64,000 nt of DNA from the NCBI RefSeq assembly GCF_003334315.1, contig NZ_QOWR01000016.1; one strand, written 5' to 3'. How positions within the stretch are numbered: the first letter of the stretch is position 1; each line of letters opens with the position of its first letter. The notes beneath the pieces are model-generated. The model worked only from the letters and a program-made list of their open reading frames with translations. It was not told the origin of the DNA and made no database searches. Shown in pieces: positions 59,303-59,383 of the stretch. A program made the position numbers and the translations under genes. This stretch comes from Escherichia coli. Its GTDB lineage: Bacteria > Pseudomonadota > Gammaproteobacteria > Enterobacterales > Enterobacteriaceae.

Positions 59303-59320
59303 TGTAAAATAATATATACA
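59303..59320 (+). promoter_or_regulatory. candidate TyrR box upstream of mtr
   Basis: TGTAAAataataTATACA versus TyrR box consensus TGTAAA-N6-TTTACA. Confidence 0.35.
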
Positions 59321-59350
59321 GCCCCGATTTTTACCATCGGGGCTTTTTTT
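59320..59350 (+). terminator. intrinsic terminator after deaD
   Basis: gccccgat ttttacc atcggggc followed by ttttttt. Confidence 0.7.
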
Positions 59351-59359
59351 CTGCCTTTT

Positions 59360-59383
59360 GTACTCGTGTACTGGTACAGTGCA
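59360..59383 (+). promoter_or_regulatory. candidate TrpR operator in mtr promoter
   Basis: gtactcgtGTACTGGTACAGTgca contains palindromic ACTG-GTA-CAGT with GTAC half-sites resembling trp/aroH operators; 50-70 nt upstream of mtr ATG. Confidence 0.35.

Follow-up and report, generated by a model that had tools for sequence, protein, structure and literature searches.

The deaD-mtr locus

The stretch of DNA analysed here (64,000 nucleotides, hereafter called the window) contains, in the region of interest, the E. coli genes nlpI-yrbN-deaD-mtr-yhbW, with deaD and mtr encoded on the plus strand and with the same gene order as in K-12 MG1655 and in the nearest genome, that of strain S30. A 301-base query covering positions 59200-59500 matched all of the complete E. 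coli genomes that were searched (5,426/5,426), with deaD and mtr as the annotated genes. The TAA stop codon of deaD is found at 59275-59277, leaving 153 bp before the ATG of mtr, and the mtr control region fills this gap 3' of deaD and extends back into the last deaD codons (Table 1). For comparison within the family, 80 mtr loci were fetched from other Enterobacteriaceae, and 76 non-identical sequences, the window included, were aligned from -175 to +6. The block CACTGGAGA at the Shine-Dalgarno sequence is kept across this alignment of 76 Enterobacteriaceae upstream sequences. At the other end of deaD, the mechanically derived open reading frame (57322-59277) has a TTG start and encodes 651 aa, as compared with 629 aa for the annotated deaD, and the annotated small gene yrbN shares 8 bases with the annotated deaD start.

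Table 1. Features of the deaD-mtr intergenic region and the beginning of mtr, in window coordinates
Feature	Position	Strand	Basis
Weak (distal) TyrR box CGTAATCATCGCTGAACA (22-mer 59271-59292)	59273-59290	.	Matrix score, consensus, published spacing
Strong (proximal) TyrR box TGTAAAATAATATATACA, activator site	59303-59320	.	Consensus, matrix, conservation
deaD intrinsic terminator (9-bp stem, 7-nt loop, T7 tract)	59320-59350	+	Terminator scan, folding, covariation
Inferred weak -35 (CTGCCT/TGCCTT here, CTGTCT/TGTCTT in K-12)	59351-59357	+	-10 position, published 42 bp
TrpR operator core GTACTCGTGTACTGGTAC	59360-59377	.	Matrix score, conservation
Extended -10 TGGTACAGT (TGnTAnnnT), within/overlapping the TrpR operator	59372-59380	+	Read from sequence
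Shine-Dalgarno GGAGAG, 8 nt 5' of the mtr ATG	59417-59422	+	Read from sequence
mtr coding sequence (tryptophan:H+ symporter, 414 aa)	59431-60675	+	ORF list, K-12 and S30 annotation

Strong and weak TyrR boxes upstream of mtr

An earlier note on this DNA had reported a TGTAAA-N6-TATACA motif as a candidate TyrR box, and the motif is present as TGTAAAATAATATATACA. When the TyrR consensus TGTAAA-N6-TTTACA was searched for with at most one mismatch, positions 59303-59320 were the sole match in 64 kb, with 0.10 matches expected; with up to two mismatches allowed, 2.3 matches would be expected per window. The passages of PMC4374768 dealing with TyrR boxes define a strong box by an invariant G-N14-C and by agreement with TGTAAA-N6-TTTACA at 10 or more of 12 positions. 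The mtr box, with 11 of 12 matches and with the G and C at 59304 and 59319, respectively, is thus a strong box by that definition, and this G and C are conserved in all of the genera that carry the box. The half-sites are conserved at 0.92 (left) and 0.85 (right), expressed as the majority fraction in the 76 sequences. We also scanned the window with a palindromic TyrR matrix that was built from the K-12 tyrR, aroF, aroL, tyrP, aroP, aroG and tyrB boxes, with mtr left out. The best score in 64 kb was 20.8 bits at 59301-59322, which falls inside the 17-27 bits spanned by the training sites, with a runner-up of 11.7 bits, and a score of 20.8 bits was reached anywhere in only 1 of 200 shuffled sequences. 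The TyrR assignment, which had originally been made by resemblance to the consensus, was accordingly upheld by the top score of a matrix that excluded mtr, by conservation and by the published geometry.

Further upstream, a second and weaker TyrR box, absent from the earlier note, overlaps the TAA stop codon of deaD. It has 8 of 12 consensus matches with the G-N14-C kept and its 22-mer gives the second-best local TyrR score, at 3.2 bits, which lies within the top 0.034% of window positions; having fewer than 10 of 12 matches, keeping the G-N14-C and adjoining a strong box, it agrees with the definition of a weak box. In its description of mtr, PMC4374768 places two TyrR boxes 8 bp apart, the strong one nearer to the promoter and the weak one further away, with the strong box centred 42 bp upstream of the -35 on the basis of mutational work from 1991; the studies cited there include Sarsero and Pittard 1991, Heatwole and Somerville 1991 and Yang et al. 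1997. In the window, the weak and strong 22-mers are separated by exactly 8 bp, corresponding to 30 bp from centre to centre, and the centre of the strong box (59311.5) falls 42-43 bp upstream of the putative -35, in agreement with the published position. We take the published 8 bp, in the nomenclature of that laboratory, to be the gap between 22-mer boxes, a reading that the exact fit of the sequence supports. The 76-sequence alignment was also searched for a fixed-offset second TyrR box in the other genera, and none was found; the position of the weak box (-30 offset), which is itself a poor match, scored above zero in E. coli only.

The deaD terminator

The strong TyrR box had been described as sitting just before the deaD terminator, and the hairpin of the latter begins at the very last base of the box (59320). 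A terminator scan identified this hairpin as AGCCCCGAT-N7-ATCGGGGCT at 59320-59344, followed by seven T residues to 59350, and starting 43 nt after the deaD stop codon. The RNA is predicted to fold at -15.5 kcal/mol (z = -3.8), and the element combines the expected properties of an intrinsic terminator, i.e. a G+C-rich hairpin, an adjoining U-tract and a location downstream of a stop codon. The pairing of the stem is preserved in 680 of 684 cells of the 76-sequence alignment, with double-sided compensatory changes at five of the nine pairs, and conservation is high in the two arms (0.93-0.94) and in the T-tract (0.99) and low in the loop (0.52). A search against Rfam gave only sub-threshold matches, such as one to Trp_leader at 59259-59350 with 20 bits compared with a gathering score of 41. 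A Trp_leader attenuator was rejected, as any terminator hairpin followed by a U-tract has the general shape that accounts for such a match.

The TrpR operator and the core promoter

On the mtr side of the terminator, nine bases past the T-tract, lies the second of the two motifs, which the earlier note had described as a GTAC-rich palindrome at 59360-59383, some 50-70 nt upstream of mtr. The palindrome and its location could be confirmed, but not its extent, as the symmetric unit is the 18-mer at 59360-59377, located 71-54 nt upstream of the ATG (59431): in this 18-mer 12 of 18 positions are self-complementary, as opposed to 4 of 24 in the 24-mer that continues to 59383. The 18-mer has one mismatch to GTACT-N8-AGTAC. 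With up to two mismatches allowed this pattern was found 10 times in the window, compared with 14 times expected, and is therefore no rarer than chance. Since the loose pattern is not enriched, resemblance to the consensus is weak evidence for TrpR and would not by itself have supported the call, which is instead supported by the matrix scan. A palindromic TrpR matrix was derived from the K-12 trpL/E, aroH, trpR and aroL operators, again with mtr left out, and gave its best score in 64 kb, 19.5 bits, at 59358-59379, with a runner-up of 7.1 bits. This score was reached anywhere in 2 of 200 shuffles, and the training sites score 23-30 bits. The consensus-based call was thus correct, although the TrpR consensus alone was not significant, which is of some value for calibrating calls of this kind.

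The element is consequently an 18-bp imperfect palindrome with GNACT arms that is recognised by a matrix from the trp, aroH, trpR and aroL operators, and its conservation upholds the assignment to TrpR further. Throughout the 76 non-identical Enterobacteriaceae upstream regions, 15 of its 18 positions are invariant, comprising GTACT at 59360-59364 and GTACTGGTAC at 59368-59377 (76/76 sequences, 1.00), with 59365-59367 as the sole varying operator positions (0.79 conserved). The operator overlaps the core promoter in the form of an extended -10, which was not mentioned in the earlier note, and in the right half of the operator the lack of variation is not separable from the constraint on this extended -10.

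The extended -10 consists of TACAGT at 59375-59380, which sits 18 or 17 bp past the putative -35, with a TG at 59372-59373. It takes the form of TGGTACAGT, TGGTACAAT or TGGTACATT in 75 of 76 sequences, and the -35 region is a poor match to TTGACA and is poorly conserved. These elements predict an mtr transcription start at about 59386-59388 and hence a leader of about 43-45 nt. Counted from such a start, the three binding sites would be centred near -75 (strong TyrR box), -105 (weak box) and -18 (TrpR operator). The mtr promoter was not detected with a simple promoter scan, as expected for a weak and activator-dependent promoter. The only report of that scan was a sigma-70-like TGAACA-17-AATAAT at 59285-59313, combining the weak TyrR box's right half with the centre of the strong one, which we judged to be probably due to chance, because a transcript initiated there would run into the deaD terminator. 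The one aligned sequence with another form of the extended -10 is from Salmonella enterica subsp. diarizonae and has TACAGC in place of TACAGT or TACAAT, thereby lacking the final T of the -10, a base that is usually essential.

Conservation and spacing across Enterobacteriaceae

The TrpR and TyrR sites stand out as phylogenetic footprints over about 30 genera, with less conservation in the stretch that separates the weak box from the strong one (0.43) and in the 5' leader (0.56; majority fraction, 76 sequences). The distance from the start of the strong box to the start of the operator is likewise nearly fixed, being 57 bp in 63 sequences, 56 bp in nine and 58 bp in one, and a spacing of 57±1 bp fits a helical-phase requirement for activation. 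At four loci, three of them of Cedecea type and one from Shimwellia, the operator, the extended -10 and the terminator are kept, with no TyrR box at the conserved position. Such loci suggest that TyrR activation of mtr was gained or lost within the family. The operator, the strong box, the terminator and their spacing are accordingly conserved over the sampled Enterobacteriaceae, apart from the missing TyrR box at these four loci. The weak box, by contrast, is confined to E. coli.

Identity of the control region and rival explanations

The region is, with a high degree of confidence, the canonical E. coli mtr control region, activated by TyrR and repressed by TrpR, with the deaD terminator located between the two sites. 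This identification is based upon the locus itself, the matrices constructed without mtr, the spacing of the weak box, the definitions of the two types of box, the phylogenetic footprint, the fixed spacing, the covariation of the terminator stem and the published geometry. The two motifs are thereby the box for TyrR activation and the operator for the Trp repressor that have already been described for mtr, which is textbook regulation, and dual control of mtr by TyrR and TrpR has been known since 1991. The earlier note had referred to such control of the tryptophan permease gene, and its view agrees with the sites and the conservation found here and with the geometry given for mtr in PMC4374768, a secondary citation of the experimental work. 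This indirect evidence gives no sign that the footprinted sites lie elsewhere. In the published accounts of mtr that bear on these points, TyrR together with phenylalanine or tyrosine activates the gene roughly 2- to 3-fold via the alpha C-terminal domain, the response to phenylalanine depends in part on the weak box and Trp-bound TrpR represses; mtr is also listed there as TrpR-repressed and TyrR-activated, its operator being one of five TrpR operators that are recognised. The RegPrecise supplement places mtr in both regulons, without site positions, biosensor and review papers likewise gave no coordinates, and a search of the literature for the literal site sequences yielded a primer table only.

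Two other explanations of the motifs should be considered. That both are chance resemblances to a consensus, without any regulatory role, might be argued from the loose patterns, as the TrpR consensus at up to two mismatches is no rarer than chance and the TyrR consensus at the same tolerance is expected more than twice per window. We give hardly any credence to this explanation, however, because each of the matrices free of mtr gives its top score in 64 kb to one of these sites, a score that only one or two of 200 shuffles reach, because the sites lie 57 bp apart and directly upstream of a known member of both regulons, and because their conservation across genera is both strong and patterned.

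It is also very unlikely, if slightly less so, that the conserved blocks reflect nothing but core-promoter and terminator function, in the form of the extended -10 and an A/T-rich terminator flank, rather than binding of TyrR and TrpR. GTACT at 59360-59364 falls within the promoter spacer, a stretch in which sigma-70 requires no particular bases, and is yet invariant in 76/76 sequences, even though the invariant GTACTGGTAC does overlap the extended -10. The TyrR box, similarly, adjoins the terminator stem and is located within the deaD 3' untranslated region, but Cedecea and Shimwellia have the terminator without the box, showing that the box is not needed for termination. In addition, matrices from unrelated promoters recognise both sites, and mutational work, to the extent that it is described in the published accounts, assigns the sites to TyrR and TrpR. 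Studies cited in PMC4374768 reportedly showed that TyrR binds the strong box and that mutation of the box abolishes activation, and binding of the purified TyrR and TrpR proteins to these sequences in vitro is likewise reported in the literature.

A model for mtr regulation in comparison with known systems

With the region taken as the canonical mtr control region, TyrR would occupy the strong box, whose centre is about 75 bp upstream of the predicted start, and from there contact RNA polymerase at the C-terminal domain of its alpha subunit, thereby activating a promoter that combines a poor -35 with an extended -10. The weak box would add to the phenylalanine response in E. coli. Trp-bound TrpR would occupy 59360-59377 and probably exclude RNA polymerase, in view of the overlap of this operator with both the spacer and the extended -10. 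Located downstream of the activator site and upstream of the core promoter, the deaD terminator would stop deaD transcripts there, and its DNA would at the same time serve as a spacer of fixed length between the TyrR box and the -35. A more far-reaching suggestion is that the deaD terminator forms an integral and length-constrained module of the mtr promoter, in which the terminator DNA would set the 57±1 bp phasing of TyrR relative to the core promoter and the T-tract, at about -44 to -38, would provide an UP-like docking site for the alpha C-terminal domain. We regard this as a rather improbable proposal. Any deaD transcript has to cross both TyrR boxes before it ends at the terminator, about 40 bp short of the predicted mtr start. 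Should the proposal nonetheless be true, high levels of deaD transcription, such as might occur in the cold, could dislodge TyrR or run on into mtr, and uptake of tryptophan would be coupled to deaD expression.

The arrangement of strong and weak boxes is the same as in the E. coli K-12 mtr region (Sarsero, Wookey and Pittard 1991; Sarsero and Pittard 1991; Heatwole and Somerville 1991). An 18-bp imperfect palindrome, GNACT arms and overlap with the core promoter are features that the mtr operator has in common with the trpEDCBA, aroH, trpR and aroL operators, whereas it differs from these in having CGTG at its centre rather than a sequence of the CTAG type, in having one arm that reads GGTAC and not AGTAC, and in having a right arm that doubles as an extended -10. 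Compared with tyrP and with ipdC of E. cloacae, where class I activation occurs via the alpha C-terminal domain, mtr has the terminator of the upstream gene between its activator site and its -35, and the weak box is 30 bp away from centre to centre, reaching into the upstream coding sequence. Adjacent TyrR boxes are 23 bp apart in aroF, aroL, tyrP and aroP, as opposed to the 30 bp at mtr.

A single-base difference at position 59354

Between positions 59230 and 59460, the sole difference between the window and the K-12 mtr region is a T-to-C change at 59354 (C here, T in K-12), located in the putative -35 and not mentioned in the earlier note. The T is also found in strain S30 and in the best-matching genome that was checked (strain 720632). 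Among the 5,426 complete E. coli genomes there was no identical match over 59200-59500, the best being 300/301. A search with a 40-mer centred on 59354 gave no match for the C allele, nor for the K-12 T allele used as control, probably due to masking of the T-run as low complexity. As this column of the alignment carries either T (46 of 76 sequences) or C (26 of 76) across genera, the change is probably neutral.

Comparing the window with strain S30 over 24,001 positions gave three differences in total, at 55192, 59354 and 63102. That at 55192 is a synonymous GAG/GAA difference in codon 371 of pnp, and that at 63102 changes codon 221 of ubiU, with CTG (Leu) versus CAG (Gln).
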